A stretch of 49,217 nt of DNA, counting the filler, from Catajapyx aquilonaris (Eukaryota), in NCBI GenBank assembly GCA_000934665.2. It is 2 parts of 2 records of this genome, joined end to end, with 100 filler letters (N's around TTAATTAATTAA, not from the genome) between each part and the next. Parts side by side here need not be neighbours in the genome. Positions count along the whole stretch, not along the records: positions 24,706 to 49,217 come from JYFJ02005497.1; 1 more part is not named here. One strand, given 5' to 3'. The notes beneath the pieces were generated by a model. That model saw nothing but the letters and a program-made list of their open reading frames with translations. It searched no databases and was not told the origin of the DNA. This document shows positions 10,740 to 41,200 of the stretch, one piece after another. The stretch's first letter is position 1. The number at the start of each line of letters is the position of its first letter. The translations under genes were made by a program, and so were the position numbers.

Positions 10740-10970
10740 GGGAGACGGAGTGGCGCCGCGGTAACGCGCGCGCCCACGGAAGTTAAGGTCCCGGGTTCAA
10801 TCCCCACCCGGGGTTCCCACCTTCTTTCGTGCAGAGTTGGGCCATCTCTGGCTTCGTTTCGGGTGGCAATATCCGATAGACTAAGCCACCCGGGGGAGTT
10901 CACAAAATGACCAATTAACGACAGCGCACTTGCACTTTGCACATCCCCTCCTATACTTACCCTTGGAACA
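10740..10970 (+). mobile_element. tRNA-derived SINE, family A
   Basis: A box AGTGGCGCCGCGG, B box GGTTCAATCCC; diverged second copy on the minus strand at 30497-30730. Confidence 0.85.
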
Positions 10971-20614: not shown

Positions 20615-21330
20615 AGACTACCAAGTTCTAGCCTCTCTCCAGGTCACCTGACCACGTTCTAGGCTTTCCCCAGACTACCTTAGGACTGACCAAGATGTAG
20701 TCTCTCCCAGGTCACCTTATTATTGACCACGTTCTAGCGTCTCCCCAGGCTACCTTCTGACTGACCACGTTCTACTCTCTCCCCAGGCTACTTTAGGACT
20801 GGCCCCGTTCTAGCCTTTTTCCAAGCTACCTTAGGACTGACCGCATTCTAGCCCAGGCTACTTTAGGACTGACTACGTTCTAGCCTTTTCCCAAGCTACC
20901 TTAGGACTGACCAGGTTCTAGCCTTTTTCCAAGCTACCTTAGGACTGACCGCATTCTAGCCCAGGCTACTTTAGGACTGACTACGTTCTAGCCTTTTCCC
21001 AGGCTACCTTAGGACTGACCACGGACTAGCCTCTCCCCAGGCTACCTTAGGACTGACTACGTTCTAGCCTTTTCCCAAGCTACCTTAGGACTGACCGCAT
21101 TCTAGCCCAGGCTACTTTAGGACTGACTACGTTCTAGCCTTTTCCCAAGCTACCTTAGGACTGACCACGTTCTAGCCTCTCTCTAGGCTACCTTAGGACT
21201 GACCGCATTCTAGCCCAGGCTACTTTAGGACTGACTACGTTCTAGCCTCTCTCTAGGCTACCTTAGGACTGACCAAGTTCCAGCCTTACCACAGGTTACC
21301 TGACCTGCTGACCAAGTTCAATCCTCTCCC
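20615..21330. repeat. ~33-41-bp GC-balanced tandem repeat with alternating unit variants
   Basis: GCTAC(C/T)TTAGGACTGAC....TTCTAGCC units, more than 15 copies. Confidence 0.93.
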
Positions 21331-22625
21331 AAGGTCCAAATAAAACACAAGAAACAACATGATGATATCCTCATCATAATTATGGATTTAATATATATAA
21401 TACACCTGAATAGTACAGTATCTTCAAACAGACACTTCTGTACACACGATGATGAGCAAATGACATCAACTGAAACAAAAGTGACCAAGCCCACCCATCA
21501 TTAGTCATCCGCCTCAAAACCTCACTGCCAATCATGGCTCCCGTCACCAGAAATTTTAACAGCCATTTCTCACGCAATATCCCACCCAATTTTATGTACT
21601 GACACGCCATAATTGTTCAAAAACATCATGTTTTACACATGTTCTCTTTCCCCTCTAGCGCACCACCATTTTCATGTCCCCAACACTTGAAGCTGCCTCT
21701 TTTTCCTCGATAAATCTTGCAGCTCTTGGTAGTGTCTAGAGACTTTTGGAGGATAGACCTTAAAAAAAAGAGTATGTACCAGGGTTAGGATGAAATATGA
21801 AGGAGTCGGGACCAGGGCGATAAGACGAGATTGGGGGGTAGGGTGTTTCTGAGGGGGAAGTTTGACCATTAGTCCGGAAGCAGGTGGGAAGTTTGAAGGA
21901 GTTATTGGGATCAAGAGACAACCCGATGAAGTCAAAGTGCCTCCGGGAAGGAACCTTTTCCACCTGTCCCTTGACTCCAGCAAGCCCTGGCTCTATGGAT
22001 TTATGAAGAGAGATGTCCCCGGGCAAACCTTCACCTCTCTTCTCTCTCTCTCCCTCTCTCTCTCCTTCTCTCTCCCTCTTTACCTTTTCGCCCATCACCT
22101 CCAGGCTGTTCATTTGCATACATAGAGAGAGGCAGGCAAGGCTGCGTCTCAAAATGTGGGGCAGGATTCCTTTCTCTTCTCCTGCCGCCAGCTACTTGCC
22201 GCCCTTTATTAAATGCCTAGAATAGCGTAGTGTTCAGATAGCCACATGATGGTGCACCCAGTAGTACCTTAAACCACCGCTACTGATATGTTGCCAACGA
22301 GGGTTTAACAACTGACATTTAAAAAAAAAAAGTTGATATAAGGTTGCGACAGTGACTCGTTGACCCTTTAAATTGATAGAAATGAGTTAGTTGAACACGA
22401 ATTTTTAAAGAATGTTGTAATTGCATTAGAGTTTTTATTATGTGTGGAGCATGTAAATTAATAATTGATTGAGGAACAGACGAAGGTTCAATGTTTACTA
22501 TTTACTAAGTTGTTATATTCAAAAACTATGTAAAGACGCACTAGGTACGGGTTAAACTCTCTTTGTAGTGTTATACTTGAATTTACATTAGGTTATTTAT
22601 TGAATTTATTGCATTCGTTGAATTT

Positions 22626-24605: not shown

Positions 24606-24705
24606 NNNNNNNNNNNNNNNNNNNNNNNNNNNNNNNNNNNNNNNNNNNNTTAATTAATTAANNNNNNNNNNNNNNNNNNNNNNNNNNNNNNNNNNNNNNN
24701 NNNNN
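24606..24705. other. Artificial contig join
   Basis: 44 N + TTAATTAATTAA (24650-24661, stops in all six frames) + 44 N. Confidence 0.95.
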
Positions 24706-25115
24706 TGACGCGTTGTTTACGTGAGGGCCCGCTCTGATTGGTCCGCGGCGTCGACGAGAACTAAAACCAAAACCGTCGACGGCCTGTGTGCATAACCAGG
24801 GACACTAAAATATTTTACGACCAATTTGTCCCTCTTACACTGTCTTGTTACATGTCCTAATACGATCTGACAAACACTTCAATATGAAACCTTGTGAAAA
24901 TAATTACCTATAGGGACATCAGCTTTACGAATGTGCATATCGTGTCGGATACTTACTCCCTTCATACAATAAAATGGAAATATGATATACCAAAAATTGT
25001 GACATTTCACTTTAATTGCTCTCATGCACTATTAGACCTGGTGCTTGAGCAGCACTGGTTTTACAGCAATTTACAGATTCCCAAGCTGGCGGGGTTGTCC
25101 CTTCTAGGCTACTTC

Positions 25116-25542
25116 CACCACCCAACAGCCCCTGGCGTGTGGCCCTCTCGCGAGTCCAGTCCCCTTTATGCGTCTCCCTAAGCTGGCCACGACCCACGGG
25201 CAGGGCGAGCAGCACTCAGGGGCGGCCCCGGGGGCCAGTTCGCCCCCTGTAAACAACCACTAACCTTGCTCAGGTCTAGGAAAGGCTGCAACGAGGCCTA
25301 TTTGGGCCACGTGCTGCTCACGTCGACTTGTACAGCGCATGCGTCAACACGTTCGATCCTAGAGCCAATCAGGGTGGTCGTTGGAGAGCGGAAATTTACA
25401 TGTGCCATTTCATCAACGAATGCGCATGCGTATGAAGTATGCTACTGCCTGATTGGCTGGTCAATTGGGGTGCTTGGTATGTGTAAATGGTAATTGAAAG
25501 TACGTAGGGGGAGGGGTCACTTTATGCGGTGTTGCCACATTC
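25116..25542 (-). repeat. Second, diverged direct copy of the promoter/first-exon unit at 33358-33799
   Basis: Aligns by eye from CACCACCCAACAGCCCC to GTTGCCACATTC; same CCAAT, GCGCATGCG, ATTTACAT, CACGTG and GTTAGT elements retained. Confidence 0.92.
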
Positions 25543-25682
25543 TCCCCGATGGCTGCTGCTTGAAAAAAAAAAATGAAACTGTAGAAATCTGATGATTCTG
25601 ATTGTGTGGAATATATTGTAATCTGGGAAAGAAATGGTACAATAATGGATGAGTCACATTCCAATAGTATGACCCACTGCTT

Positions 25683-25831
25683 TTACTCTCTCACACTTGT
25701 ACGGATATATATGCCACACTCTGAATCAGAACCACAGGAGGACTCGCTCTCCTCAGAATCTGAACTGTCCGATTGTGAACCACTCTCGCTGTCCGATCCT
25801 GATGATTCTTCTTCACTACACTCTCCGATCA
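25683..25831 (-). CDS. UBTF: Probable terminal exon: Ser/Glu/Asp-rich acidic tail
   Basis: tttctttgcag acceptor; IGECSEEESSGSDSESGSQSDSSDSEESESSCGSDSECG...RE* is open only in phase 1, but the preceding strong donor is phase 0. Confidence 0.6.
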
Positions 25832-28800
25832 CTGCAAAGAAACAAAATAAAAATATTTTAACACCAGGGTCAACAATGTGTTGATGTTTCTAGTATTGTA
25901 ACCCTCTATCTGATGCCCTCTTCTATACAATGCATGAGTTTGACATGTTCAGATCCAACGATAAGGCGGTAAAAAAAAAGAAGCAGCAGCTGAGGATATG
26001 GTTATGGTTGCATGCACTCATGTCCCATTCAATGCAGCCTTGCCTTACATTTCCTTCCTTACGCTAAAATAACCCATGTTGAAGCTAGTAATTACTGGGC
26101 ATCAATTAGTTACACTATAGTGAAAACCAAGGCACAACGAAGTACGTAATTAGAACAAATCCCATGATATGGCAGCCTACTTTGATATACATCATAGCAA
26201 TTAAGTTAATGGTGTAATTTCTTTCGCGACTTACTTCCTCAACTGTAATAAATGGTCATGAATTTCTTTATGCTCATTGGGCTAACAGTGAACGACTATG
26301 AATCAAGGACGTAACATTTCTGGACTTTGAATTTGGCATGTTACAGCTTATTTATTGGATGAAATGATGTAAAAATGCAATACATGTTGTCCCATAGGCA
26401 ATTATTGTCCATAGCTAGCTCTGGTTAAAAGGTTGGCTTTGGTGACCTTGGCGGTGAGGAAAAAAAAAAGACGGCTGGCTCATCCAGATGTGGCCGATGA
26501 CAAGGCGAGTGTGGTAAATATAATTAAACCCCACCCGCACGAAATTCCTTATGGCGGTAGACAAAAGGTTAAATCGATAATAATTAACACTCTTTGAAGG
26601 GCCTTAAATGGATGTAGTTGTCAGCTAATGTATTTTTTTTTTTCAAACATCTGATCCTGATCTGCAACAGACTGAACCTAATTCACAGCACACTTGCAAC
26701 CAAAAATCACCATCAATTTACCTCATTGTCACTCTCGTCTGAGTCACTGTCAGTCCCCTTGTCATTATCCTTTCCAGCTGCTTGCTGGCGACTTCCCTTG
26801 ATCACCGTGTATTCTGCTCGTTCCTCTAGACTTAGGCTCTATTTAAAATGAAGACAACAAACATTAAAGTTTGGGAATGGTACCTTTCAATGACACTAAC
26901 TCCACAACTACTCACCTTGATGAACTTCTCATGCTGCTTGATGTACTTCTGCTTCATGTCACTGAGTTGTTTACGGTACTTTGACTTTTCTATCTCTGGT
27001 AACTCTTGCCAATGGCGTGGCGCATCCTCCTTGCGGTCTGTTGGGGCAGTGGCATTTGCCTCCGTGACAAATGTTTGCAGAAAGAGTGCGTATGCCGTCC
27101 TGCAGGAGTTTTCAGTTGTCAGACAGAATAATAAAGTATTTATAGAAATCCAGTTTGGACTACTCACGTTGGGGGTGGTTCTGGTTCATTTTTGTAGAGC
27201 TTGCGACCTTTACGAGAGTCACTCTTGATAACTTGGGTTGACTGGAGAAAAATATGTTCACATTATTGACATCGTAACATGAGTGTTTCAAGAGAAAATT
27301 GGTAGCAAGTACAAACCGGGCGTACTTCTGGACGTGGCTGCTCATCCTCATCAGTTGCGTCTGACTCCTTCTTTACCTTCTTTGGGTTGATGGGAGCAGC
27401 TTTGCGCTTGCGCTTTCTTGGGGGATTGCTCTCTAGCTCCATCTGCCGCTGCACTTGTGACAGAGACTCAAGGTAGCTGGCATATTCCAGTTCGTACTTG
27501 TCCATCATCTAGAATGTAAATCACAAACTTCAGTCTACTTTCAGGTTTGCATTTTTCAGGATCAACAATCGTAATTATTCTTGTTTCATCAAAACAAACT
27601 TTTACTGCCGCTTCTACAATGGGCGATAGTTATATTTATTGCATTTTATCTTGTAAGTGACGCTTAATCAACACCGGATTGCTAAATAAAGTCTCAAATC
27701 TTCAATGCATTTACCTCCTTTGCCTGATCATTATACTTCTTCCGCTCATCATCCTCAAGTTTCCACCAACGTCGGGATATTTCTTGCAAACGATCAAAGC
27801 CGCTGATGTTCTTCAGCTCAGCACTGGGCATCATCACACTTGAGTATAGGAAGTGCCCTGATTGAGGTGGTCTCTCAGGCTTCCCGGCAAACCGGTCCCT
27901 TAGTTGCCTTTCTTTCTTGCTCAGAACTGACGTCAGAGGAATCTTCAATTCTGGGTGATCTCTCCTATACTTCTTCAAAGACTGGTAATAGCGCTGCTCC
28001 TGCTTGCACGTCTGGTTTATCCACTTCATCTTCATTTTCTCAGATAGATTTTTCCACTCTTCCTGGCAAGCCGCAGACAGAGATGCACGGTTGAAGTCGG
28101 TGTCATTCTTGCACTTCTCAAGGCGGGAGTTGTAGAACAGCTAATTGGACGAAACAAGTACAAGGGGTTTAGAAGCCTACAAACTGTGAATACCAGGATA
28201 ATATAATTATTATGAACTGCCAGTTTAAAAAAACATCATCAGGATTATGTGTAAGAATATTACAATTTCATACAACTAAGATAACAATCATTAGCTGTAA
28301 TGCAATCAGAAAGACAGCTACATCAATCTCAAAATCATAGCATTATTTTTGATGTTGCCTTCTCTTCCTTCAGTACATCATATGAAAGGAGATGTGCAGA
28401 AGTGGCGTTAATGTTATGCTGCATATTATCTCATCACAGATTACTTAGAGGAGTACTTGGAAAACTACGCAAGAATTTTCAGTGCTACTTTATCCTAACT
28501 TGCAACTACGCTACTTCTGCACTTCGCCTTGAATGGATTCAGTGGCTAGTTCTTCACAACATTAGGAATGGTCTTACTCACCATAAATGGTGTCTGAGGT
28601 TTGGCCTTGCCAATGTTGGGCTCTTGGACCTTGCGTTTCAAACGCGGATGATCCTTACTGGAGTTTTTAAAAAAGAAAGTAAATTCATTAGTAACGACAT
28701 TTACTCTTGGTAACGATCACTATAAATTGCATACATTATGCATAGTATTCTGCAAATTAGGCTACATCTCAAAGTCGATTTTCCTAATTTAAATGGGCAA

Positions 28801-31800
28801 AAAAGGAGAGCTATTAGAATTTACATGAGTGTCCAGCAATGGGGGGTGCGGACTGATTGAAGCAACATCCCAATGATCAGGAACATAACATTATCTGCCC
28901 GGAATATGCTGCTTCATCCAGCCAGTTTATCTTAGGCAATTGTTGCGGTAACGAAAGAAGGTTCGGACGATTTTTAAAACACTTTCATTGCGATTTGCCA
29001 TGACTGTGGAAAACCTTTGGGGGTTCTGTTTTTTCTATCAAGTTCCAGGCAGAGAGGACTGAATTTTGCCACAAATCCGACACAAAAGTATCATTTGATA
29101 GCGCCAGAGGAAAGAGAACAAACACGGCAACGAACCAAGGTTTTGAGGACACGCATGCACCTTGTTGCACTGCGTAATAACTCTGCAAATTCTGAGTGGT
29201 TGTGAGGGCAGTATAGAAATGCTCCAGTGAAGAAAAGTGTGAGGAATCCCTTGGTCACCTTGCCATACCGATATCTGCTTATATTTGCATCGAAGCGCAA
29301 CAAAACACGCGGTAACAAACCAAGAAAAAAGGTAACGAACCAAGGCGTGCGATTTTCTGTCGATGCAATGTTCAGAACCTTTTCATGGGGAGTATTTGTG
29401 AGCTGTTTTGCCTCTTCAGGACATAACAGGACACATCAGGACACCTGATCAGTCACCAGAGGATTCTCATGTATCGGTCGATTGAGATGGCTAGGTATGA
29501 CCAGGCCATACCTAGCCACCCCATTATGAGACAATGCCGTGATGAATGTTCTTGGATGTAACCCAGGATGAAAAGGGTGTTGCCTACCTACCGAACAGAG
29601 CCTTTGCGGACCAGGCTGACACAGACAGATTAATGAACTGACTAGAGCAGGAAATGTTTTAATAAGTGCTTATTAGAAATCAATAACAGCAAATGGCAAT
29701 TTGGCCCAAAAGAGGTGCCTACGGGAATTTGTTGTTATTTTTGGTACTAAACCAAGGCTTGCGGATGTCCCAGGTTCATTACTAACAATTACGCATTCAG
29801 AGATCACCATCCGACAATTTAAGCAATGCACATCAATATAAAGAGGACATCAAGCTGCATCCAACTGACATTCTTGAGAAGTGATCGAAATAATGGCAAT
29901 GATTCGAGTCGCCTAAAGCTGCACGTGTCCCCAGACGCCTAAAGGCCTTCGGCGTGCACAGTTGAACGTATGAGCAGCTGGTGCCAAAGAAGAGCAACAC
30001 TGGCCAATTTTAATGTTGGGATTGTTTAGTCGAGATGCTGAGCATCCGATTGGTGTGATAAAACGTGGGATTCAACGAAACAAATAATAATCGTCGTTTC
30101 ATGTCCGCTCTATGGAACAACTGAGCTTCAAATATTCACAACATACTTATATTGCTTCATCTTTTCCTCGTATTCTTGTCTCATCCTAGCTGCCTTCTCA
30201 GTGTACATTTGTTTCTTCTCTGCAGAAAGCTTCTCATACATCAGGTATATATGCTGGGACACTTGGCGCTGGAATAATCAATAACAAATAATAGCAGTAA
30301 AGTTCACTCAAGTATGAGTGCTGAGACTCACCTGGTTCATCCCAGGATTATCCTTGGACACCTTGTCCTTGTTGTCACGATAGAACAGCTTGTATGTACT
30401 CACTGGACGGGTAGGCTTGTCAGGGCGTCGAATCTGCAATGATATGACAACAAAATTTGAGTTACATTTTGGTGCCGATTCATTTGAATCGCCCAGGCCC
30501 ACGGGCAGGATGACAGGAGGGGATGTGCAATGTGCAGTGCAAAGTTGCCAAGATGGTACATAATTTGTGAACTCCCCCGGGTGGATATGTCTAGAGGAAA
30601 TTCCACCTGAGACGAAGCCAGAGACTACCCAACTCTGCACGAGATGAAGGGGATGTCCCCGAGCTGGGATCAAACCCGGGACCTTAACATCCGTGGGCGC
30701 ATACGTTACCGCAGCACCACTTCGCCTCCCTACTCGGACATGTATTAGAATTATATGCACACATTCCGATAACGTTTTTCTAGTTGCTCATAACGCCCCT
30801 TCATTACAAACATCCATGGAGCCTGCAGAGTTTGAATTAGATGATAAAAAACTGGATTCATTGTTCCCGACAATTTCTTTCGACATTCTTGGCCAATCCC
30901 GGGTTCAGTGTTGAATATCGCGGCCAATCCTGCTCAACCAACTCTCCCCACGGGGGTGCCAGGAAAGACCTTGTTTAAAAAACTGAATATTTTACTTTGT
31001 TTATATACTTCTATGGAGTCGCCACCACTGATAAACAACATCCCGTAGCCTATGTTCGGCTTGTTGTGCATGCTTGGAACAGGGGCCATTTGGAGGCGTC
31101 ATGGTAATAATATGTCGCAGTAACAATAGATGGGGGCCAATGGGCAGCAGTGGTGGCAACAATATGCCATGGACCACTCAGACGGCTCGGTCAAACAATG
31201 GAGGATTTTAATATTATAGATTTCTTCACAGCGTTCGAAATAGTCTTACTCACCTGAGGTTTGGCCTTGCCAACAGTGGCCTTCTGGGCCTTGGGTTTCA
31301 AATCAGGATGATCCTCACTGGGGTATTTAAGAAGGGAAGAAAATTCATTAGTAGCTATCCCTATAAATTACAAGCGATATGCATAGTAATATGCAAATTA
31401 CACTTCAGAGTTGATCCATATTTAAAAGGTGTAAAAAGGAGAGCTATTAGAATTCACATGAGTGTGCAGCATTGGGGGGTGCGGACTGATTGAAGCAACA
31501 TCCCAATGATCAAGAATATAACATTATTATCCGCCCTGAAGATGCTGCTTCATCCAGCCTGTTTATCTGCCGTATAAATCTGAAACAACTGAGCTTCAAA
31601 CGTTAACAACATACTGGAATTGCCTCATCTTTTCCTTGTATTCATGTCTCATCTTAGCCACCTTCTCTTGGTACATCTGTTTCTCCTTTTCAGAGAGGTT
31701 CTTGTACATCTGGGCAATATGCTTGGACACTTGGGGCTGGAATAATCAATCAATTAACAAATAATAGAGCCAAAGTTCACTCAAGTATGTGTGCCGAGAC

Positions 31801-33262
31801 TCACAATGTCCATCCCAGGATTTTCCTTGCACACCTTGTCCTTCGCGTCAAGAAAGAACAGCTTGTATTTCCTCAATGGACGGCGAGGCAAGTCAGGGTG
31901 TCGATCCTGCAATATGAGAACAAAATATAAGACCTCCACTACTGAATAAGCAGCAATTGGTCCAGCATTACACATCATGTAAACTATGACCTGAACTTTG
32001 TTTAGTCACTCTCTTTGTGCATTTTTTGGTACTCTGCATGCTTCTTTTGTATCACTTTTTACACTCAATTGTCAAATTTAAGCACAAGCTACTGAATCCC
32101 CGAACTTTAGGCCCCCACTCGCACATTTTTAACAGCAACATTATTTTAGAACAGAACCTGATGCATTCAAAAAAAATTGTTAAGGATCACAATTACGGAA
32201 ATCTACCTCAGTTATTGCGGCATGCCGGCCAAACCCCCCGGGTTATACTGGCATGCTGGTCGCCCCCTCACTTTATACCGGCATGCCGCTTTAAGTGAGA
32301 GGTAATACAGTATTAAGATTTCTTCACAACATTAGGAATGGTCTTACCTGCGATTGGACCTTGGGATGCAAATCTGGATGATCCTCACTGTGGTTTTTTA
32401 AAATGGAAAAAAATTCATTAGTAGCTATCACTATAAATTACATTCGACATGGATAGTATTCTGCAAATTGCACCTCAGCGTTGATCCATATTTAAAAGGC
32501 CAATGCGAATAGCTCTATAAGAATTTACGTGAGTGGCCAGCAAAGGGGCATGCGGACTGATTGAAGCAACATCCCAATGATCAAGAATATATCATTATTA
32601 TCTGCCCTGAAGACGCTGCTTCATCCAGCATGTTTAGCTGCCTTTTAAACCTGGAACAACTGAGTTTCAAACATTCACAACATACTAGAATTGCTCCATC
32701 TTTCCCTTGTATTCTTGTTTCTTCCTAGCTGCCTTCTCACGGTACATTTGTTTCTCATTTTCAGGACAGTTCCTGTACCTCAGGGAGATATGCTTGGTCA
32801 CTTGGGTCTGAAATAATCAATTAACAAATAATAGAGCCAAAGTTCACTCAAGTATGTGTGCCGAGACTCACCTCGTCCATCCCAGGATTCTCCTTGCACA
32901 CCTTGTCCTTCTTGTCAAGGTAGAACAGCATGTATGCAGTCAATGGACGGCGAGGCTTGTCAGGGTGTCGATTCTGCAATGATATGGGAACAAAATGTAA
33001 GGCAATAAGCCGCAATTGGTTCCAACATTACACATAATGTAAAATATGACTTTGTTCAGTCGCTCTCTCTGTATATTTTTTTGGTACTCGGCTTGCATCT
33101 TTTGTATCAATTTTTACATTCAATTTTCACAACCTTCTGGCTAGGTTCCGCTGTCCGCTTGTGCTTGTTGGGTATGGGCACCACTGACGTGTCCATTGCC
33201 GTTGCGCTATCAGACGCACCATCCTGTGCCAGCTTCCGTTTACGTGATGCCATCGGTGCCAT
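25683..33262 (-). CDS. UBTF: UBF (upstream binding factor 1)-like multi-HMG-box protein, spliced gene; 655 codons through exon 15 plus a possible acidic-tail exon
   Basis: GT-AG exons join in frame: 33262-33134, 32973-32872, 32807-32686, 32387-32348, 31906-31805, 31736-31615, 31317-31254, 30433-30332, 30268-30147, 28657-28582, 28140-27715, 27508-27326, 27241-27168, 27099-26916, 26838-26722, then 25831-25683 (phase uncertain). UBF-type motifs: HPDKPRRPLTAYMLF, EDHPDL, KPQTPFMLFY, WKNLSEKMKMKWI, DHPEL..LSKKERQLRDRFAGKPERPP, EPEPPPTTAYALF, SLSLEERAEY, Ser/Asp/Glu tail. Confidence 0.88.
26722..26838 (-). CDS. UBTF: UBF-like exon: end of last box, start of acidic tail
   Basis: aaatag|SLSLEERAEYTVIKGSRQQAAGKDNDKGTDSDSDESDNE|gtaaat, 117 nt. 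Confidence 0.82.
26916..27099 (-). CDS. UBTF: UBF-like last HMG box exon
   Basis: ctgcag|TAYALFLQTF...PRHWQELPEIEKSKYRKQLSDMKQKYIKQHEKFIK|gtgagt, 184 nt. Confidence 0.88.
27168..27241 (-). CDS. UBTF: UBF-like exon (STQVIKSDSRKGRKLYKNEPEPPP)
   Basis: ttttctccag|...|gtgagt, 74 nt. Confidence 0.82.
27326..27508 (-). CDS. UBTF: UBF-like exon: end of box 3 plus basic NLS-like linker
   Basis: ttctag|MMDKYELEYASYLESLS...PPRKRKRKAAPINPKKVKKE...RPE; donor GTACGC is weak, and an in-phase GTTTGT lies 9 nt further on. Confidence 0.8.
27715..28140 (-). CDS. UBTF: UBF-like exon encoding HMG boxes 2 and 3
   Basis: attag|LFYNSRLEKC...EEWKNLSEKMKMKWINQ...DHPELKIPLTSVLSKKERQLRDRFAGKPERPPQSGHFLYSS...ISRRWWKLEDDERKKYNDQAKE|gtaaat, 426 nt. 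Confidence 0.92.
28582..28657 (-). CDS. UBTF: UBF-like linker exon C and start of HMG box 2 (KDHPRLKRKVQEPNIGKAKPQTPFM)
   Basis: ctccag|...|gtgagt, 76 nt. Confidence 0.85.
28932..30110. mobile_element. ~1.2-kb insertion in the copy-C intron, possibly a degenerate LINE fragment
   Basis: The homologous introns in copies A and B are ~298 nt; this one matches them on both sides of the interval. Short plus-strand peptide VVIFGTKPRL near 29730 weakly resembles L2/CR1-group RT C-terminus. Confidence 0.5.
30147..30268 (-). CDS. UBTF: UBF-like HMG box 1 copy C, second half
   Basis: ttccag|RQVSQHIYLMYEKLSAEKKQMYTEKAARMRQEYEEKMKQY|gtatgt, 122 nt. Confidence 0.88.
30332..30433 (-). CDS. UBTF: UBF-like HMG box 1 copy C, first half
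   Basis: ttgcag|IRRPDKPTRPVSTYKLFYRDNKDKVSKDNPGMNQ|gtgagt, 102 nt. Confidence 0.88.
30497..30730 (-). mobile_element. tRNA-derived SINE, family A, in UBF-like intron
   Basis: Reverse complement shares GCGCCCACGGA.GTTAAGGTCCCGGGTT, CGTGCAGAGTTGGG, CCACCCGGGGGAGTTCACAAA and TTGCACATCCCCTCCT with 10740-10970. Confidence 0.85.
31254..31317 (-). CDS. UBTF: UBF-like linker exon B (EDHPDLKPKAQKATVGKAKPQ)
   Basis: cccag|...|gtgagt, 64 nt. Confidence 0.82.
31615..31736 (-). CDS. UBTF: UBF-like HMG box 1 copy B, second half
   Basis: ttccag|PQVSKHIAQMYKNLSEKEKQMYQEKVAKMRHEYKEKMRQF|gtatgt, 122 nt. Confidence 0.88.
31805..31906 (-). CDS. UBTF: UBF-like HMG box 1 copy B, first half
   Basis: ttgcag|DRHPDLPRRPLRKYKLFFLDAKDKVCKENPGMDI|gtgagt, 102 nt. 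Confidence 0.88.
32204..32311. mobile_element. Small inverted-repeat element (GCGGCATGCCGG family)
   Basis: TACCTC..GCGGCATGCCGG / CCGGCATGCCGC..GAGGTA; same motifs recur at 36220-36550. Confidence 0.5.
32348..32387 (-). CDS. UBTF: UBF-like linker exon A (EDHPDLHPKVQSQ)
   Basis: cacag|...|gtaaga, 40 nt, restores phase 0; EDHPDL follows box 1 in UBF. Confidence 0.8.
32686..32807 (-). CDS. UBTF: UBF-like HMG box 1 copy A, second half
   Basis: tttcag|TQVTKHISLRYRNCPENEKQMYREKAARKKQEYKGKMEQF|gtatgt, 122 nt. Confidence 0.88.
32872..32973 (-). CDS. UBTF: UBF-like HMG box 1 copy A, first half
   Basis: ttgcag|NRHPDKPRRPLTAYMLFYLDKKDKVCKENPGMDE|gtgagt, 102 nt. Confidence 0.88.
33134..33262 (-). CDS. 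UBTF: UBF-like coding exon 1 (MAPMASRKRK...EPSQK), basic NLS-like N-terminus
   Basis: Acceptor tgtcctgcag just upstream (exon starts 33271), ATG at 33262, donor AAG|GTTGTG; 129 nt, phase 0. Confidence 0.6.
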
Positions 33263-33357
33263 TGCGATTTCCTGCAGGACATAATGAGATCCTAAGTACT
33301 GTACATTGCACGGGTACTTAGGGCCGGCTCAAGGGCGCCAGGCTGAGCCGCCATTTT

Positions 33358-33799
33358 CACCACCCAACAGCCCCTGGCGTGTGGCCCTCTCGCGCGTCCA
33401 ATCCCCTTTATGCGTCTCCCTGAGCTGGCCTCCACCCACGGGCAGGGCGAGCAGCCCTCAGGGGCCGCCCCGGGGGCCAGTTCGCCCCCTTTAAACAACC
33501 ACTAACCTTTGCTAAATCCGGCTGAAACGAGCGTGCCTATTTCGACCACGTGCTCAACTCGATTCTACAAGGACGAAGGAGCGCATGCGTCAACATGCCC
33601 CGATCCTAGAGCCAATCAGGGTGGTCCGTGTTGAGCGGGAATTTACATGTGCAATTTGCTAATGAGAGCGCATGCGTGTCAAATATGCTGCTACCTGATT
33701 GGCGGACCAATTCGTGTGCTTGGAATGTGTAAATTTTAATTGAAGGTACGTAGGGGGAGGGGGTGGGTTGGGGTCACTTTATGCGGTGTTGCCACATTC
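33358..33799 (-). promoter_or_regulatory. Probable UBF-like gene promoter, short non-coding first exon and start of intron 1
   Basis: Two CCAAT boxes (~33611, ~33697), two GCGCATGCG NRF1-like sites (33581, 33668), octamer-like ATTTACAT 33641, E-box CACGTG 33547; donor AAG|GTTAGT at 33506 can pair with the acceptor at 33272. Confidence 0.6.
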
Positions 33800-34846: not shown

Positions 34847-36306
34847 TAGGAGCCCTCCACAGTGCTTAATGATTGTTGTCCACTTCAGGCTTTCCATGCT
34901 CGGTCTATGGCTCATCTGGATTTTAGGGGTTTGGCCTATCGTTATCCAAAAGCTCTGTTGGATTTATTTGGAAAGAAAAAGAGCGCCCTCTATTTCCCTC
35001 CCCTCCTATAAATCGTTAGTGTTGAATTCTATGTAAGCAAAGGCAGTGGAATGTTCGCTCCAGCAACCTATTAAAACGAAATCGATTGTCGAGCACTGCA
35101 ATTATTGCAGTGCTCGACAATCGATCCAGAATCTTATCTCTCTCCCGATTATCTCCCATTGAATAATTATTAGAGAGATAAGATTTTGGATTGTTTTCCC
35201 CAGCACGTCAATTTTTAATATTGGCAACACGACAGGGGCACAGGGCCCACACACTTGTCAAAAAGAAAAATTAAAATCCTATAACTTATTGTGACATAAC
35301 TGTACGGACCAGCCAACTTTTGTACTTAGGTATTTCACCTCTTGCATAGTTGGAGACGTGTGAAGCTGCCAATTGTGAATTACTTACACATAGTAGTTAC
35401 TATAGGTTACTTGGCAACACTGCTTGCCCCCCCCCCCCCCCCCCCCCCANCCCCCCCCCCCCGGAAGTAGTACTGTAGGCGACTGTAGGTCCCTACCAGT
35501 TGGCGCATAGGTTGTCCCTCTGCATACTACTGCCACCCTCAGGGGGAAAGTAGTACTACATGCACGTTGGTGATGAGTCACCGCGCGGACAAAGCCCACC
35601 AGGGCGCTGTAACCAGCGCGTGTCTCGCTTCCATTGAAGAGGTTCCCACCCTCTCTGACAGTGATGTGCTCTCTAATCGTTGAACATGGAAAATGAAAGT
35701 TATGGTAAACTACACTATACCTTGACTATACTCTACCTATAGGAGTATAGGTTATGAGTCGAATCGGACAAACAAGGCGGACGGAAAGAATAATTGGGAT
35801 TGGTAGTATGATGAAAATAAAAAAATAAAACTTCGTGCGTATTGGTTATAACATGGTTTTTTCTGCGGTCCCTTGAAGTCTTATATCCGGCGTCAACTAA
35901 CTATAAGTATAACACCCTATGCCAGTCTGCTTTTGTTAGAACATTGCACTCGAAATGTGTCAAATATGATTGCTCCGTTCATTACTATCAGGTCGGACAA
36001 ATGGACCGTGTTATGCAGTAATGTGTCAACCCACAAAATATGTCAAAATTGAGCTAAGCCCAGGAACATACACCTAAAGGATCCCACTTCATTCAGTTAA
36101 AATCACACTGGTGAAATCTGTACCAAAATGTCCCCTTTTCGATAGCCTCTACGTGAATTAATATTTTCAGCCAAATGTCATCGTCAAGTTCGGAAATGAT
36201 CATGTAACTTTAGTGAAAACCTCGCCTTATAGCGGCATATACCTCACCCTATATCGGCATGCCGGTATATAGGCGTATAGCCACCAGATCGTTCATATCT
36301 AAAAAA

Positions 36307-36693
36307 AACTGATCGACCTCGACTATACCGGCATGCCACTCTATCTTTGTGACTGCCCACCCCTTCATGTGATCAAGGCAATGAACGAATACTGTATACT
36401 TCTGCCATAAATGACCGAAAAGAACACTGAATTAATTTCACAGGTAATCCCTGTTCTCATGTGGGTTGACTCATTATTGCATAACACGTTCATTTCTAAA
36501 TAACTGATCGACCTCGGCTATACCGGCATGCCGCTTTATGTGAGGTAATCATCTTTGTGACTGCCCACCCCTTCATGTGATCAAGACCGTTGAATGAATA
36601 CTGTATACTTCTGCCATAAATGACCGAAAAGAACACTAAATTAATTTCACAGGTATCTGTTCTCATGTGGGTTGACTCATTATTGCATAACAC
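36307..36693. repeat. ~190-bp tandem duplication upstream of the E2F promoter
   Basis: 36307-36487 and 36502-36693 both run AACTGATCGACCTCG...TCATTATTGCATAACAC. Confidence 0.9.
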
Positions 36694-37045: not shown

Positions 37046-37749
37046 TTCATATGTTTGGCAGTGGGAATCATGGTGGGAATGGCTAGTTTCGGTGTGTGTG
37101 GAGCTGCTATGTGTTTGGTTTTCTGGGTGTTCCAGGAGTAGAGCCGGCTGGTGGCAAGGCTCGTAGTAGTGGAGGGTAGCCCCGTGTAGAACTGTGTAGA
37201 GAGGGGAAGGCGCGCGCGGGACACACACTCAGCGACACCCTCCCGCTGCCCACCCTCTCCCCTCTAAAACTCCCCCGGGAAAGGCCCATTAAAAAAAAAA
37301 AATTATAATAATTTTAGAACACCCCAAAAAAGTTAACGCTCCGACATCAAATCGGCCCGCGGTTCTGCCCAGGGGCCAGCAGCATACTTAAACCCTGAGA
37401 GCCTGGGGGAGGGGGGTCTGTTTCCCCCACTGTTACGGAGTTCACCCCGCGCTGTTCACCCCCCCCTCCCCCTCCCCCCAAACCCACCCACCCACCCACC
37501 CGACTCCCCGGCTCACCGTCGAATTCGCACCTGGCCCAGGGGTCGGCCCCCAGTGTAACACCAGGTACTGGGAGAGAGGGGTAAGCACAGCATGCATTTT
37601 TTTTGTCGTACCTTATGGAACACCCTGTAGTTTTTTTTTTGGAGGGGGGAACACACACACAAAGGGTTTGTTTATGGAGCACCCTGTAGGTAGGGAGAGG
37701 GGCTAAATGTACGTTGAATCACCCTGTAGTTTGGGTGGAGACACTTTAG

Positions 37750-38240
37750 GTTCATCCTGTAGTACAGGGTGAGTCAGGTCATGGGGGCGGAACACCACTG
37801 GTCGGTGCGTTCTAAAATGTAAGGTTGTTCCAGGTAGGATTCATCCTGTAGTACAGGGTGAGTCAGGTCATCGTGGGGCGGAACACCACTGGTCGGTGCG
37901 TTCTAAAATGTAAGGTTGTTCCAGGTAGGATTCATCCTGTAGTACAGGGTGAGTCGGATCAGCAGTTGTGGGGGCGGTTGTTCCGGGTAGTACAGGGTGA
38001 GTCAAGTCATGTAGGGCGGAACACCAGATCTGGTCAGTGTTCCATCTTGTAGTACAGGGTGAGTCAGGTCATCAGTTGTGGGGCGGAACACCGGATCTGG
38101 GCAGTGTTCTGTAGTACAGGGTGTCAGCTCAGTTGTGGATCGAACACTGGAGCTGTTCTGAAAGTAGGGTTCATCCTGTAGTACAGGGTGTCAGGTCAGT
38201 TGTGGAGCGGAACACTTGATATTGAGCTGTTCTAAAATGT
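37750..38240. repeat. Degenerate tandem array in the presumed first E2F intron
   Basis: CATCCTGTAGTACAGGGTGAGTCAGGTCAT..GGGCGGAACACC units, about 7 copies. Confidence 0.85.
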
Positions 38241-41200
38241 GGGGGTCATCAGGGGTCATCTGCTGCAAGGTACAGTTAGGTCGCAGGATCAGTTTGGATC
38301 GCCCTGTGTGCAGTGCGACTTGCATTGTTGGAAATATTAGGTCGACCTGAGGTCACTTGTGGGGTGGAACACCGGGTCATGATTGGGCGTTCTAAAATAT
38401 AGAAGGGTCATCGGACTAGGGTCAGACAAGCATATGTTGCAGGATCAGTTGGGAATGCACAGTGCGACTTGCATTTAATGGAAATGGTAGGTCACTTGCG
38501 GCAGATAGGTCGTGGATCATCAGACCATTCGCTGATGGGGGTCACTGGAGGTCAAAGGGCCCCAGCATCATTTTAGGCAGGTGACTCTACAGGGAGAGAA
38601 AAAAGGGGGGGAAAAAGTGAGAGCGAGCAGGGGGGCAGCATTGGGAGGAATTTGTGCCACACCCTGTACTTGGCTCCATTGAGTTGCCCAGCTCACCCAT
38701 TTTGGTAGTTGTGGCTCACCTTGTACTTTGCCACACAAAGGATGAAGGGGGGAGGTGTGTCAAGGGGGGTGGGGCCTAGAGATGGAGGAGCAGATTTGTG
38801 CTCTTTATTTTTGAGTTACCCTGTGCTTTTGGGTTGAGCACCTGGATCCAAATGTACTGACAGCTATGAATCGCATATTCAATAATAATGTACGATCGTA
38901 CGATCACTGCTACCTTAGCAAGAAATATCTGTACACATTTCGGTATTAAAATATAATTGATGCAATAGCAATTACCTGTAAAACACAACTCCTTCATTGC
39001 TGCGACTAATTTATTGTTTTCTGGTTCATGCTGCAAATTTATGAAGCGCCCCTCAATTTCTTGCGAATGTGTACAGCGCATGTTGCGATGACTGCAATTT
39101 TGTGCCGAAATGTTGGTGACACATAGTTGAAGGAAACATGTCCATATCCAACTGAAAATATCGTTGCATTTGGATACCATGTGAACTGGAAGAGAGGGTG
39201 GGAAAATCTACTGCAGAAATTTGCATCATTTTGCCAAAAATAGGGCAATTAGTTTGTGGATTGAAGTGCTCCATTGTTGAAGGCAACAGCTTTTTTTGTA
39301 GGTACATGCGAATGAATTTATGCCCTAGCTTTACTTCTCAAAATGTAGGACTGTTTGGGAATTGACATTGTTGCCATGTTCATACTGAATATTGATCATG
39401 CTGTAACCCACTTTTTTTTTTTTTGGAAACGATTTTGTTGCTACACTGTAGCACATTACTGGCACAGAGAATTCGTAAGCAGGCTAATTATGCTTAATTG
39501 CTAACTATGCACCTGTTAGCTCAACCTAACACAAGCCATGTGGACTTAGCCTAACTCGACCCTGTTTGGTAACAACAAGCTTATCGTGACATTGGGATAA
39601 GGGCAAATAGGCATCAAATCCTATCAATTTGACCGTTATAACTTGCCGGTTAGTATTGCCGAGGAGAGATGAGGGAAAAAAAAATTTCATAGTGTGCAGG
39701 TTTTCATGCCTATTGATGAACAGTGTCCAAAATGGCTTCTCTCCATCCCATTGCATGCTGAACTCTTTTTTTCTCTCTCTCTCCCCTTCCCCTCTCCCAA
39801 CCCTAGCATGGTCAGCATGCATGAAAGTGGGTAATATGAAGCATGAAGTTGGACAGGATTAACTACTCTCGTTATGTGATTCAGGGTGCACCCAGTTTTA
39901 TCACCTGAAGGTGTGTTTACTGATCGTGTATAGCGTGGATTGTAAAAATGCGGTGTGAAGGTGAAGGTCGTATATTTTTGTAAGTTAAATTTATTTTTTT
40001 CACCATGCGCATGTTAGACGATGCTTAGTGCTCCTAGTTCATAGAAAAAATAAGTGGATCCAACATTGTAACTTAACTTGCAATGGAACAAAGAGGTCGT
40101 GCGTTATTTTTTTTGCGGCGCATTCAAAGTGCATTGATAATGTTAGGGTGGCATATCATGCTTGCATTGAATATCTGTGTGATATTAGTCGGCTCTCGGT
40201 TAATTGCAGTTTCAGTTGTCCATGGTTTGAAAGTGTTGAATATTAATAAAAAATATCGCATTAAAATATGACACATTTGTATTGAAGTAGCACATTTCAT
40301 AACTAACCTATTTTATTGTTGTCTTTGCTGATGTCTCATTGTGTATAACAAATTACATATCCTAAGCATGTGTGTTTGCTAAAAACCATATATTACATAG
40401 AATTCCATTATCTGCAGGAGAGCTTGGGACCAATTATTGCGGATAACTGGGGAGCGGACTGTAACATGATAAGTTAATTGCCAATTTATTGCAAACTGCA
40501 TCCATGTAAAATTGTGTTAACAACAAAAAATTCTGGCTTCAATTAGAATAAAAGGGTTATTAATGTGCGTCCATAACTGTACGATCAGGTGCTTTTAAAT
40601 TTACAGTGAAGTGACACGCTTGCTGTACACTACATTGGCCTGTGGGGAACCCCATTAAATGCTGGTGTGTCAAAGTAATGCAGTTTCTATAATAAAATTG
40701 CAAAGAGTTAATTGGTGCTGCCAGCTAGGCGCACTAGATAACATTTGCAGTTACAGTTGGTGGCGGACTGCAAAAAAAAGCTGCTTGCATGAAAGTATGC
40801 GTTCAAATTAATGACAAGTTGAGCATCCACACTTGCTGGTACATTCGGGTTTGTCACGAATACATTTTGCCACCTTATGAGCATATGGTAGGCTATCACA
40901 TGTTAACGTGTCTCGTATTACCTGAGAATATTGTGGTGAGCTCGTATAGTACTTTGAGTAGATTCGGAGTAAATATAGCTTGGATGAATATTACATGTAA
41001 CATGCTCTAGTAGTAGCCTGGTAGTACTCGTAAGAGATTTTTTAAATCAAATGCTGATGAAGTGTTGCTCTTGTTGGTAGTTTTTTTTTTTCTCTCCCAA
41101 GCATTTTGTGGCAGCTCGTCAGACTTGCAGATAATATCATGGGAGGTTGGATATGACAAAAGTAGGATTATGCACAGAGCACAACCACTTGTTTCCTGGA

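Follow-up and report, generated by a model that had tools for sequence, protein, structure and literature searches.

PRDM9-type arrays consist of tandem DNA-binding modules whose contact residues differ, with concerted evolution elsewhere in the module. In gene families with accelerated evolution, such as the snake-venom PLA2 and the conotoxins, introns are more conserved than exons. Codon tests for selection have familiar sources of false positives, namely multi-nucleotide changes and gene conversion. UBF is usually seen as a conserved architectural factor, in which box 1 and the dimerisation domain shape rDNA chromatin. One passage on UBF describes the dimerisation module plus the first two boxes as enough to bind and bend rDNA (PMC3905846). 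For HMG boxes in general, a passage of PMC2691818 states that a nonpolar wedge occupies one of two sites in every box that binds DNA, and it links polar residues at a wedge site to loss of intercalation.

In the window analysed here, a stretch of 49,217 nucleotides from Catajapyx aquilonaris, the region with the HMG boxes makes up the 5' half of a minus-strand insect gene of the UBF type (nucleolar transcription factor 1-like), which is expressed. A previous sequence-only reading had described duplicated HMG boxes in this DNA, and had seen in them a signature of diversifying selection that reflected rapid adaptive change of DNA-binding specificity. The boxes are indeed genuine duplicated HMG boxes of a UBF-like gene. 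The claim of selection fared less well, as detailed below.

A UBF-type gene with three box-1 modules

A three-exon module, comprising HMG box 1 (two exons) and an exon for an EDHPDL linker, is present as a tandem triplication on the minus strand. Each box is made up of a 102-nt and a 122-nt exon: box A at 32973..32872 and 32807..32686, box B at 31906..31805 and 31736..31615, and box C at 30433..30332 and 30268..30147. The Pfam profile HMG_box (PF00505) matches both halves of all three boxes, with 27.1 + 30.5 bits for A, 16.6 + 37.6 for B and 21.5 + 24.8 for C; the halves were scanned exon by exon and span profile positions 1-27 and 29-68, and the cut-off of 25.4 is that of the whole domain. 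In box A, the first exon (34 codons, profile 1-26) encodes the N-terminal strand and helix 1, and the second (40 codons plus 2 nt, profile 29-68) encodes helices 2 and 3. The short introns between the box exons measure 64 nt in unit A (32808..32871), 68 nt in unit B (31737..31804) and 63 nt in unit C (30269..30331), the first two being near-identical. The linker exons are found at 32348..32387 (A; 40 nt, canonical AG/GT sites), 31254..31317 (B; 64 nt) and 28582..28657 (C; continuing in frame into the start of box 2). The EDHPDL motif of linker A matches the linker between boxes 1 and 2 of annotated insect UBFs. Upstream of box A, a predicted first coding exon (33134..33262, minus strand) would run from an ATG to a GT donor (GTTGTG) and encode 43 basic, NLS-like residues in phase with box A exon 1.

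Downstream of the modules, boxes 2, 3 and 4 and a basic linker are encoded by the minus-strand exons 28140..27715, 27508..27317, 27241..27168 and 27099..26916, which match Pfam HMG_box and HMG_box_2 and, as a block (26916..28140), are collinear with annotated insect UBF. The last exon with a confirmed start (26700..26838, minus strand) contains a short acidic Ser/Asp(/Glu) stretch and a stop. A longer acidic Ser-rich ORF lies at 25683-25889 and would provide an alternative 3' end if exon 26700..26838 were spliced onto it.

Splicing could be followed in the sequencing run X5. The kind of this run is unrecorded, and we treated it as RNA-type because its contigs carry splice joints; X1 is a DNA run. 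X5 contains 11 GT..AG joints at predicted exon borders, none of which occurs in X1. Among them are 32807->32872, which removes the short intron of box A, 31736->31805, which skips the 68 nt of unit B (ends CT..AC on the plus strand), and 30268->30332, which skips the 63 nt of unit C. Linker B is bordered by the joints 31317->31615 and 30433->31254, and linker C by 28657->30147 and 28140->28582. Four joints support the downstream exons, and 26838->26916 sets the start of the last one. The X5 contigs covered neither the predicted first exon (33134-33262) nor the acidic frame at 25683-25889, which is informative in neither direction, and no joint to the acidic frame appeared among them. A 771-nt X5 contig has listed pieces over both exons of box B (the first at 31805-31905) and both exons of box C, and its length and joint sides also fit the end of the first exon of box A, the second exon of box A and the linkers A, B and C. 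Splicing places the three modules one after another in one protein, ahead of boxes 2-4 and a probable acidic end. Mutually exclusive splicing of the duplicated exons was considered and rejected, since one contig has the units in series. All box reading frames are open. The lack of expression that the sequence-only reading had allowed for does not apply here, as the boxes are expressed and spliced in series in X5.

A tblastn search with the proteins P0001 and P0021 returned collinear matches from 32997 down to 26916, covering box types 1, 2, 3 and 4. The closest relative was P0021, a Schistocerca 'nucleolar transcription factor 1-A-like' protein, with an identity of 58.8% to box A, 52.7% to box B and 47.3% to box C; for the downstream exons the values were 39.7% (141 aa) and 46.7% (75 aa). 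The named relatives were all insect 'nucleolar transcription factor 1(-A)-like' or HMG-box proteins, and beetle and bug UBFs were also close. Searches with shorter queries returned little: the 148-aa frame of boxes 2-3 gave one match among 108 candidate proteins, and the aligned second-exon peptides of the three boxes, compared with longer proteins, gave none at E <= 0.01 among 75 candidates. In a box-1 tree with 25 rows, A, B and C formed a single clade (support 91/93), and the introns of the three units can still be aligned (approximately 80-88%), so that the triplication appears to be lineage-specific. By a crude assignment, none of the 150 best UBF relatives has three consecutive box-1-type segments. 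Literature searches on invertebrate UBF evolution and insect UBF duplication listed no paper on a triplicated box 1, which does not prove its absence. Tandem Repeats Finder, with 500 as the longest period, did not report the units.

An N-terminal dimerisation domain was assigned to roughly 135 of these 150 relatives, and none was found in the 49-kb window. Here, tblastn with the N-terminal 150-180 residues of UBFs gave no match within the window, and the corresponding exons may lie beyond it. When 120 UBF N-terminal domains were combined into a profile, its best result against 2157 six-frame pieces of the window was E 0.58 (6.9 bits).

Divergence of exons and introns between the units

The counts underlying the sequence-only reading were reproduced. 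Of the 74 full codons, 25 are replaced between boxes A and B and 3 differ only synonymously; the split 75th codon (Y/H) differs as well. The 102-nt exons of A and C differ by 13 amino acids and about one synonymous step. The helix-1 motifs LTAYML, LRKYKL and VSTYKL had been read correctly, and the introns at 32808-32871 and 31737-31804 are indeed distinguished by 1 substitution in 64 aligned sites and one 4-nt indel. The statement that exons diverge more than introns holds for this short intron, mainly in the pair A-B, and fails for introns as a class. Exons differ at 41 (A-B), 43 (A-C) and 47 (B-C) of 224 sites, or 18-21%, and the long introns at 47/297, 60/292 and 48/292 sites, respectively, or 16-21%. 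The upstream intron differs between A and B at 18 of 151 sites (12%), and even the short intron of copy C differs from those of A and B at 7 and 6 of 63 sites. When exons were compared with all intron sites, no pair showed a significant excess: 41/224 versus 66/512 for A-B (Fisher 0.069), 43/224 versus 71/330 for A-C, with the introns more diverged (Fisher 0.52), and 47/224 versus 56/329 for B-C (Fisher 0.27). Indels are absent from the 3 x 224 exon nucleotides, and several are present in the introns. The probability that neutral change would leave all three copies without a stop is 0.048. The A-B mismatches have a neighbouring mismatch in 25 of 41 cases in exons (P 0.0016) versus 19 of 66 in introns (P 0.25); this tighter clustering in exons counts against the boxes having drifted neutrally.

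The similarity of the short introns is confined to A and B. This pair differs at 1 of 64 sites there versus 47 of 297 in the long intron (Fisher 0.0009), and no stretch of the unit is identical between A and B over a greater length than the 60 nt in the short intron (permutation P 0.0056). Copy C has private changes at 22/224 exon, 19/248 long-intron and 6/63 short-intron sites. In the short intron, private changes number 1 in A, 0 in B and 6 in C; elsewhere there are 85 in A and B together and 46 in C (Fisher 0.012). Along the A-B alignment, mismatches per 40-nt window range from 0 to 14, in introns and exons alike, and the homogenised patch is a single one of about 100 nt, seen in A-B only. 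Since copy C changes in the short intron at the same rate as elsewhere, and A and B alone are alike, the near-identity points to a local patch of gene conversion. The sequence-only reading had proposed intron divergence as a neutral baseline and had itself named gene conversion as a contrary outcome. As a probable conversion patch with A-B-specific identity, the short intron cannot serve as a neutral yardstick.

The long introns contain a hairpin on the minus strand in each unit, at 32555..32632 in A (MFE -31.6 kcal/mol, z -2.05), 31482..31559 in B (MFE -31.2 kcal/mol, z -2.07) and 28852..28926 in C, where the intron is 1489 nt long (MFE -26.6 kcal/mol, z -0.94; arms identical to A and B). The arms are conserved, the loop is variable and covariation is seen in 0 of 28 pairs. 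Its size and conservation pattern resemble those of a candidate intronic pre-miRNA (about 60-80 nt). Rfam searches at E <= 1 over 28400-33300 gave only weak matches to mir-458 and ceN30, each of which fell far short of its threshold; the match of the unit B hairpin to mir-458 (22 bits versus a gathering score of 59, E 0.35) does not amount to membership. A high-copy interspersed repeat (30515..30731) is inserted in the intron that separates linker B from box C; it has an inverted 79% match at 10739-10952 and a word depth of about 130,000 in X1, versus about 50 beside it. ARAGORN detected no tRNA, and a tRNA origin of the repeat is thus not supported.

Codon tests and the DNA-contacting face

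Only about 40 of 222 sites in the boxes are synonymous, and raw codon counts ignore these site numbers. After correction, A and B are separated by 7.2 synonymous and 32.8 nonsynonymous steps, with a dN/dS of 1.02 (NG86). The corresponding values are 2.41 for A-C (bootstrap, one-sided, 0.035) and 1.26 for B-C, and the pairwise Fisher tests gave 1.0 (A-B), 0.12 (A-C) and 0.67 (B-C). Maximum likelihood with model M0 on the three-branch tree estimated omega at 1.73 or 1.93, which is not different from 1 (LRT p 0.17 or 0.087). dN was 0.21-0.25, approximately the long-intron distance (raw 16-21%); relative to long-intron divergence, it was not higher for A-C and 1.1-1.4 times as high for A-B and B-C. 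The proposed selection signature is therefore not supported for the boxes: their dN/dS is not significantly above 1, an outcome that had been named beforehand as speaking against it. Rapid adaptive change of DNA-binding specificity is possible and not demonstrated, with the boxes evolving at an approximately neutral rate.

Site models gave a mixed picture. M2a was preferred over M1a (p 0.006-0.007, LRT 10.3 or 9.9) and assigned approximately 22% of the codons an omega of about 7. With omega capped at 1 and two codon rate classes allowed, lnL reached -557.96, compared with -562.16 for M1a and -556.99 for M2a. We attribute the site-class signal to such rate heterogeneity; with omega freed, the two-class model gained an LRT of 2.38 (p 0.06). 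A three-rate-class model placed one class at omega of about 6 (LRT 5.8, p 0.008), with odd estimates. The M2a and three-class results favour a selected class and hence count against neutral drift. Furthermore, all point estimates of omega were at least 1 and every capped model hit the bound of 1, an upward leaning that counts against relaxation alone, which predicts omega <= 1. All these tests rest on three sequences of 74 codons each.

The copies are not alike in the residues that face the DNA, and both intercalation-wedge positions are among those that vary. In HMG-D, the wedge residues are Met13, Val32 and Thr33. Among solved structures, HMG-D/HMGB (1HMA, 1QRV) matched the first box exon best (E 3e-6). 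HMG-D aligns without gaps over the N-terminal strand and helix 1, where the helix-1 wedge coincides with the Met of box A; box exon 2 matches box B of HMGB1/3. In this alignment, the helix-1 wedge position 15 is occupied by M, K and K in A, B and C, and the helix-2 wedge positions 34/35 by E,T, I,P and Q,R, respectively; Schistocerca UBF has M at 15 and M,T at 34/35. Compared with the DNA-bending HMG boxes described in the cited passage (PMC2691818), B and C with their Lys at the helix-1 wedge, and C also in having no nonpolar helix-2 wedge, are atypical. Within a 104-nt tract of low A-B divergence, 3 of the 5 differences fall in codon 34, a wedge position next to the intron (P 0.0055), and this cluster counts against neutral drift. 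Conserved positions have also been replaced (L48C in A, F74Y in C, K55M in A, B and C), which fits relaxation and a functional shift alike.

Run X5 holds a further box variant that is absent from the window. Its joint from the end of box A exon 1 to box C exon 2 was considered as exon skipping and rejected, since the contig has differences of its own from both exons. We read this contig as a putative fourth box, with K at position 15 and M,P at 34/35 (five letters at the joint are our own reading). Among the differences listed relative to the nearest exons of the window, 10 codons are replacement and 2 synonymous, and this excess counts against plain neutral drift.

Competing explanations and comparison with known systems

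It is conceivable that the triplication is an assembly artefact, or that the extra boxes are dying exons. The window does contain assembly gaps (N runs at 892-1062, 24606-24649 and 24662-24705), and the fourth box is missing from it. However, units that are 18-21% different and carry different insertions argue against both a collapsed and a doubled assembly, DNA contigs of X1 cover all 30 bins of 25400-33700, the units are linked one after another across canonical splice sites in an RNA-type contig, and the frames are open throughout. We consider an artefact of either sort highly improbable. A second possibility is that functional elements, such as the splice signals of minimal introns or a hairpin RNA, constrain the introns, so that exon divergence only seems high. 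The hairpin of about 75 nt has a 20-bp stem that is invariant in the three units, and its 3' arm forms the second-longest identical A-B run (41 nt); in addition, the short introns are only 63-68 nt long, with identical splice-site ends. Against a general constraint, copy C accumulated its private short-intron changes at the rate of its exons and long intron, and the missing differences concern A-B only. The short introns also have no unusual fold (z -0.59, 0.21 and -0.02), and Rfam found no family at threshold in the whole window. It thus seems improbable that intron constraint accounts for the pattern.

Diversifying selection on the DNA-binding face, above all on the two wedges, would mean that the boxes bend or bind DNA differently. 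They would perhaps follow a fast-changing rDNA promoter or spacer, with conversion erasing neutral differences and selection sparing the contact codons. The M2a result, the M0 estimates of 1.7-1.9 and the bootstrap for A-C support this, as do the wedge residues. These differ in A, B, C and the fourth box and remain suggestive; a nonpolar wedge is described as general in DNA-binding HMG boxes (passage in PMC2691818). Codon 34 forms an island of three differences in a nearly identical A-B tract, and codon 35 also differs, across the 64-nt intron, so that the cluster is contiguous in the mRNA and not in the DNA. However, no robust test (M0, pairwise Fisher) rejects omega = 1, allowing omega above 1 adds little once two codon rate classes are present, and dN has no clear excess over long-intron divergence. 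The variable positions overlap those varying among UBF orthologues (Spearman 0.23, p 0.047), as low constraint would give. The Lys wedge in B and C and the lack of any nonpolar wedge in C could reflect a loss of function just as well as a new specificity, and with so small a sample, multi-nucleotide changes and conversion may mislead the tests. We therefore regard diversifying selection as a tentative alternative, on balance doubtful. Starting from the observed anatomy, splicing and divergence figures, and from the likewise observed loss of short-intron differences specific to A and B, we lean somewhat towards a UBF-type gene whose box-1 module was triplicated within the lineage and has since drifted almost neutrally, with a conversion patch at the short intron of A and B. 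In this scenario, the module of box 1 (two exons) and EDHPDL linker was triplicated in tandem, and the three boxes have since diverged at about the long-intron rate, with omega of about 1 to 2 and approximately half of the residues, the fold core, kept identical. The probable cause is relaxed constraint on redundant internal copies. The frames may have stayed open because the remainder of the protein would be lost with any frameshift or stop, and the tandem repeat would be a mosaic, patchily homogenised, in which local A-B gene conversion gave rise to the short-intron patch.

As things stand, this is an ordinary case of internal exon-block duplication with nearly neutral drift and one small conversion patch. 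It also teaches that raw counts of replacement and silent changes in a Lys/Glu-rich domain, set against a single minimal intron, overstate selection. A bolder idea, which we think unlikely, is that the box-1 array is an evolving DNA-reading module, in which the wedge combinations differ, the units vary between individuals or paralogues, and selection keeps the wedge codons apart. Judging from the aligned residues, the combinations would be Met in helix 1 for A, Ile in helix 2 for B, none for C and Met in helix 2 for the fourth copy. If this were true, the protein may lack a dimerisation domain, a built-in series of boxes replacing the two box-1s of the dimer, and it could co-evolve with the rDNA promoter or spacer, offering a UBF-side handle on the species-specificity of Pol I.

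Like PRDM9 arrays, the boxes described here are tandem DNA-binding modules with differing contact residues, and X5 hints that another individual may carry additional or variant modules. The analogy to PRDM9 made in the sequence-only reading nevertheless breaks down at concerted evolution, since a divergence of 18-21% between the units extends over all site classes and there is no homogenisation outside the contact residues. In addition, the PRDM9 repeat is a minisatellite within one exon, whereas the module here comprises three exons of a 1.1-2.7-kb unit, and a dN/dS above 1 is not established for it. As in snake-venom PLA2 and conotoxins, one intron, of 64 nt, has diverged far less between two copies than the exons on either side of it; in contrast to those families, the other introns have diverged (long 16-21%, upstream 12%) and the effect is limited to one copy pair. 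With annotated insect UBF/UBTF, the gene shares the box order 1-2-3-4, the basic spacer, the H-P-[DE]-L linker motif after box 1 and probably the acidic Ser/Asp end, and it matches the Schistocerca protein P0021 with an identity of 59% for box 1, 40% for boxes 2-3 and 47% for box 4. It differs from UBF in that box 1 and the linker are present three times in series. A UBF-type gene with three box 1s that differ in their wedges would be a natural experiment on the number of boxes needed, and on whether boxes adapt to the rDNA of their own species.

A triplicated HMG box in a UBF-type gene

The flagged stretch contains three homologous units on its minus strand, A (most upstream), B and C (most downstream). 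Each begins with a 102-nt exon for the first part of an HMG box, N-terminal strand plus helix 1, followed by a short intron of 63–68 nt, a 122-nt exon for helices 2 and 3, and a long intron leading to a short linker exon that starts with [EK]-D-H-P-[DR]-L. AG/GT is canonical at every exon border, the splice sites are nearly alike across the three units, and both halves of A, B and C match Pfam HMG_box. With the window as blastn target, unit B is 82.8% identical to unit A over 797 nt; its match to unit C is 81.1% in the box exons and 75.6% on the linker side, with about 1.2 kb of extra DNA between the two pieces. This extra DNA (28933–30112) has no counterpart in A or B; within the long intron of unit C it separates the conserved 5' end from a part carrying a hairpin. 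The linker exon of C (28582–28657) has 12 additional nucleotides coding for the start of box 2, so that the intron position of box 2 differs from that of box 1; linker exons A and B resemble shortened copies of it. A predicted basic first exon of 43 codons would lie 160 nt upstream of box A. The downstream exons encode three further HMG boxes along with a basic spacer and an acidic Asp/Ser end. A word-based database search with the box 2–3 frame had as its sole match a 755-aa protein with the full UBF architecture.

The hairpin, of about 75 nt, lies on the minus strand in the long intron of each unit (32555–32632, 31482–31559 and 28852–28926 in A, B and C, with minimum free energies of -31.6, -31.2 and -26.6 kcal/mol). 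The three copies have identical sequence in both arms of its 20-bp stem and differ in the loop, a pattern like that of pre-miRNAs; any small-RNA product is putative. No Rfam family matched at threshold (a weak mir-458 match had E 0.35).

Several repeats surround these units. The intron ahead of box C holds a very-high-copy interspersed repeat (30515–30731) with a word depth of ~130,000 in the DNA run X1, compared to ~50 in its flanks. ARAGORN called no tRNA in it, and an inverted second copy lies 20 kb off (10739–10952). Two copies of a ~440-nt direct repeat, 82% identical to each other, bracket the whole gene: one lies just downstream of the acidic frame (25113–25542), the other just upstream of the predicted first exon (33355–33799). 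The repeat could be part of a transposon or a remnant of a larger segmental duplication. Other local tandem or dispersed repeats beyond the gene are found at 20616–21334, 36290–36693 and 37747–38250, the last with a 91-nt repeat unit at 37747–37955.

Splicing and a fourth box

X5, a small sequencing run of unrecorded kind, contains 18% of the sampled words. Its contigs have 11 joints, with minus-strand GT..AG, that coincide precisely with the predicted introns and mark these contigs as transcript-type; none of these joints was found in X1. The listed pieces of one 771-nt contig cover both box exons of B and C, and, judged by its length and joint sides, it would also include the end of the first exon of A, the second exon of A and all three linker exons. 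Since this contig spans the units, the boxes are co-included, which rules out mutually exclusive box splicing.

X5 contigs also contain a further box (matched window positions 32873–32977 and 30150–30267) that is absent from the window, with linker-like exons on either side. Its first exon resembles that of A with T12R, A13P, M15K, Y18C, K24E and one silent change, and its second that of C with E12K, K13N, A16E, E17K, M21K and one silent change; of the codon differences listed, 10 are replacements and 2 are silent. This fourth box could be allelic or paralogous, or come from a collapsed unit. At position 32773, part of the depth in both X5 and X1 shows C>G (plus strand). The site is the second position of codon 12 in exon 2 of box A, so the change is a replacement, likely a segregating polymorphism.

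Divergence of boxes and introns

The sequence-only reading had proposed diversifying selection on the boxes from codon counts and the near-identical short intron. The counts themselves were reproduced: of 74 codons, 25 differ by replacement and 3 only silently between A and B, which also differ in a split codon; A and C differ by 13 replacements and 1 silent change in exon 1; and the short introns of A and B show a single substitution across 64 sites and a 4-nt indel. Such raw counts are misleading, because only ~40 of 222 sites are synonymous in this Lys/Glu/Arg-rich sequence and silent steps are hidden in codons with several changes. By the Nei-Gojobori method (NG86), A and B differ by 7.2 silent and 32.8 replacement steps, giving a dN/dS of 1.02; the ratio was 1.26 for B-C and 2.41 for A-C (bootstrap one-sided 0.035, Fisher 0.12). 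Fitted to the three-branch tree, a codon model gave an omega of 1.73 (F3x4) or 1.93 (F1x4), not significantly above 1 (likelihood-ratio test, LRT, p 0.17 or 0.087), so the proposed selection did not emerge from this comparison.

Exons were also said to diverge beyond the intron. This is true for the short intron of A-B (1/64, compared to 41/224 exon sites), but not for all introns pooled (Fisher 0.069 for A-B, 0.52 for A-C, 0.27 for B-C), as A-B differ at 47/297 sites of the long and 18/151 of the upstream intron. For A-C the differences are 43/224 in exons, 60/292 in the long and 7/63 in the short intron, and for B-C 47/224, 48/292 and 6/63; the upstream intron is not alignable in either pair. 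The short intron is therefore an unrepresentative yardstick, and dN (0.21–0.25) is close to the intronic rate.

Model M2a improved on M1a (LRT 10.3 or 9.9, p 0.006–0.007), with about 22% of codons at omega ~7. This signal is mostly plain rate heterogeneity, since a model with two codon rate classes and an omega of at most 1 has an lnL of -557.96 (M1a -562.16, M2a -556.99). Freeing omega gave an LRT of 2.38 (p 0.06), and a three-class model 5.8 (p 0.008) with implausible estimates. Mismatches cluster in the A-B exons (P 0.0016), but for the two pairs that include C those in introns are clustered as well (P 0.008 and 0.005). The most telling detail for selection is codon 34, the last ahead of the short intron: its three bases account for 3 of the 5 differences in a 104-nt A-B tract of low divergence (P 0.0055). 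The first codon past the intron also differs between A and B.

In a gap-free alignment with Drosophila HMG-D, box position 15 falls on the intercalating Met of helix 1 and positions 34/35 on the helix-2 wedge, using what we take to be the HMG-D wedge residue numbers. Position 15 is M in A and in locust UBF, and K in B, C and the fourth box. Positions 34/35 are E,T in A, I,P in B, Q,R in C, M,T in locust UBF and M,P in the fourth box. A passage in PMC2691818 places a nonpolar wedge at one of these two sites in DNA-binding HMG boxes and describes a polar residue there as accompanying loss of intercalation. The pattern fits a differentiation of bending behaviour, and equally a decay of redundant boxes, as both wedge sites of box C lack a nonpolar residue. 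Positions that differ between the copies tend to vary also among 83 UBF box-1 sequences (Spearman 0.23, p 0.047), although a few strongly conserved residues are replaced (L48C in A, F74Y in C, K55M in all three). The 3 x 224 exon nucleotides contain no indel, compared to several in the introns, and the probability of no stop in all three copies under neutral change is 0.048. These open frames are weak evidence for a function of the boxes themselves, because a frameshift or stop would also remove boxes 2–4; extra boxes with no function of their own would have their frames preserved too.

We lean slightly towards a lineage-specific internal triplication of box 1 in a UBF-type gene, with in-series expression, near-neutral divergence and patchy homogenisation. 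The near-identity of the short intron is limited to A-B, whose divergence along the unit is a mosaic in exons as in introns, ranging over 0–14 mismatches per 40 nt. When odd letters were sorted by copy, the short intron had 1 for A, 0 for B and 6 for C, compared to 85 for A and B together and 46 for C in the rest of the unit (Fisher 0.012). The A-B differences are thus erased there, the effect expected of a short gene-conversion patch, and one such patch would coincide with the short intron by chance. Private changes of C occur in the short intron at the rate of the exons and long intron (6/63, 22/224 and 19/248), so it is under no special constraint; a constrained intron is accordingly an improbable explanation. 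Diversifying selection on the DNA face of the boxes has real leads in codon 34 and the wedge pattern, but dN/dS is not significantly above 1, an outcome that the sequence-only reading had itself named as refuting it, and we regard it as possible rather than likely. An artefact or decay seems very improbable.

Comparison with known UBF proteins

A HMMER search with the 755-aa protein returned 2324 relatives at E <= 0.001, and the best 150 were used. A crude best-match assignment found three consecutive box-1-type segments in none of these 150, and a literature search on UBF evolution and duplication in invertebrates and insects yielded no description of a triplicated box 1. The N-terminal dimerisation domain of UBF (domain roles as described in part of PMC3905846) was assigned in ~135 of the same best 150. 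Within the window, tblastn gave no match to it, and a profile of 120 such domains reached a best E of 0.58 against 2157 six-frame pieces.

A tree of 25 box-1 sequences places A, B and C together in one clade (support 91/93), so the triplication is lineage-specific. With tip lengths of 0.19, 0.25 and 0.53, box A is the most conservative copy and box C the most changed. Among the best 150 of the 2324 relatives, the closest to the window boxes is P0021, named 'nucleolar transcription factor 1-A-like' (Schistocerca) by its sources; the next best named relatives come from beetles and bugs and carry that name too. Identity to P0021 is 58.8% for A, 52.7% for B and 47.3% for C, and the window gene and P0021 are collinear from box 1 through box 4.
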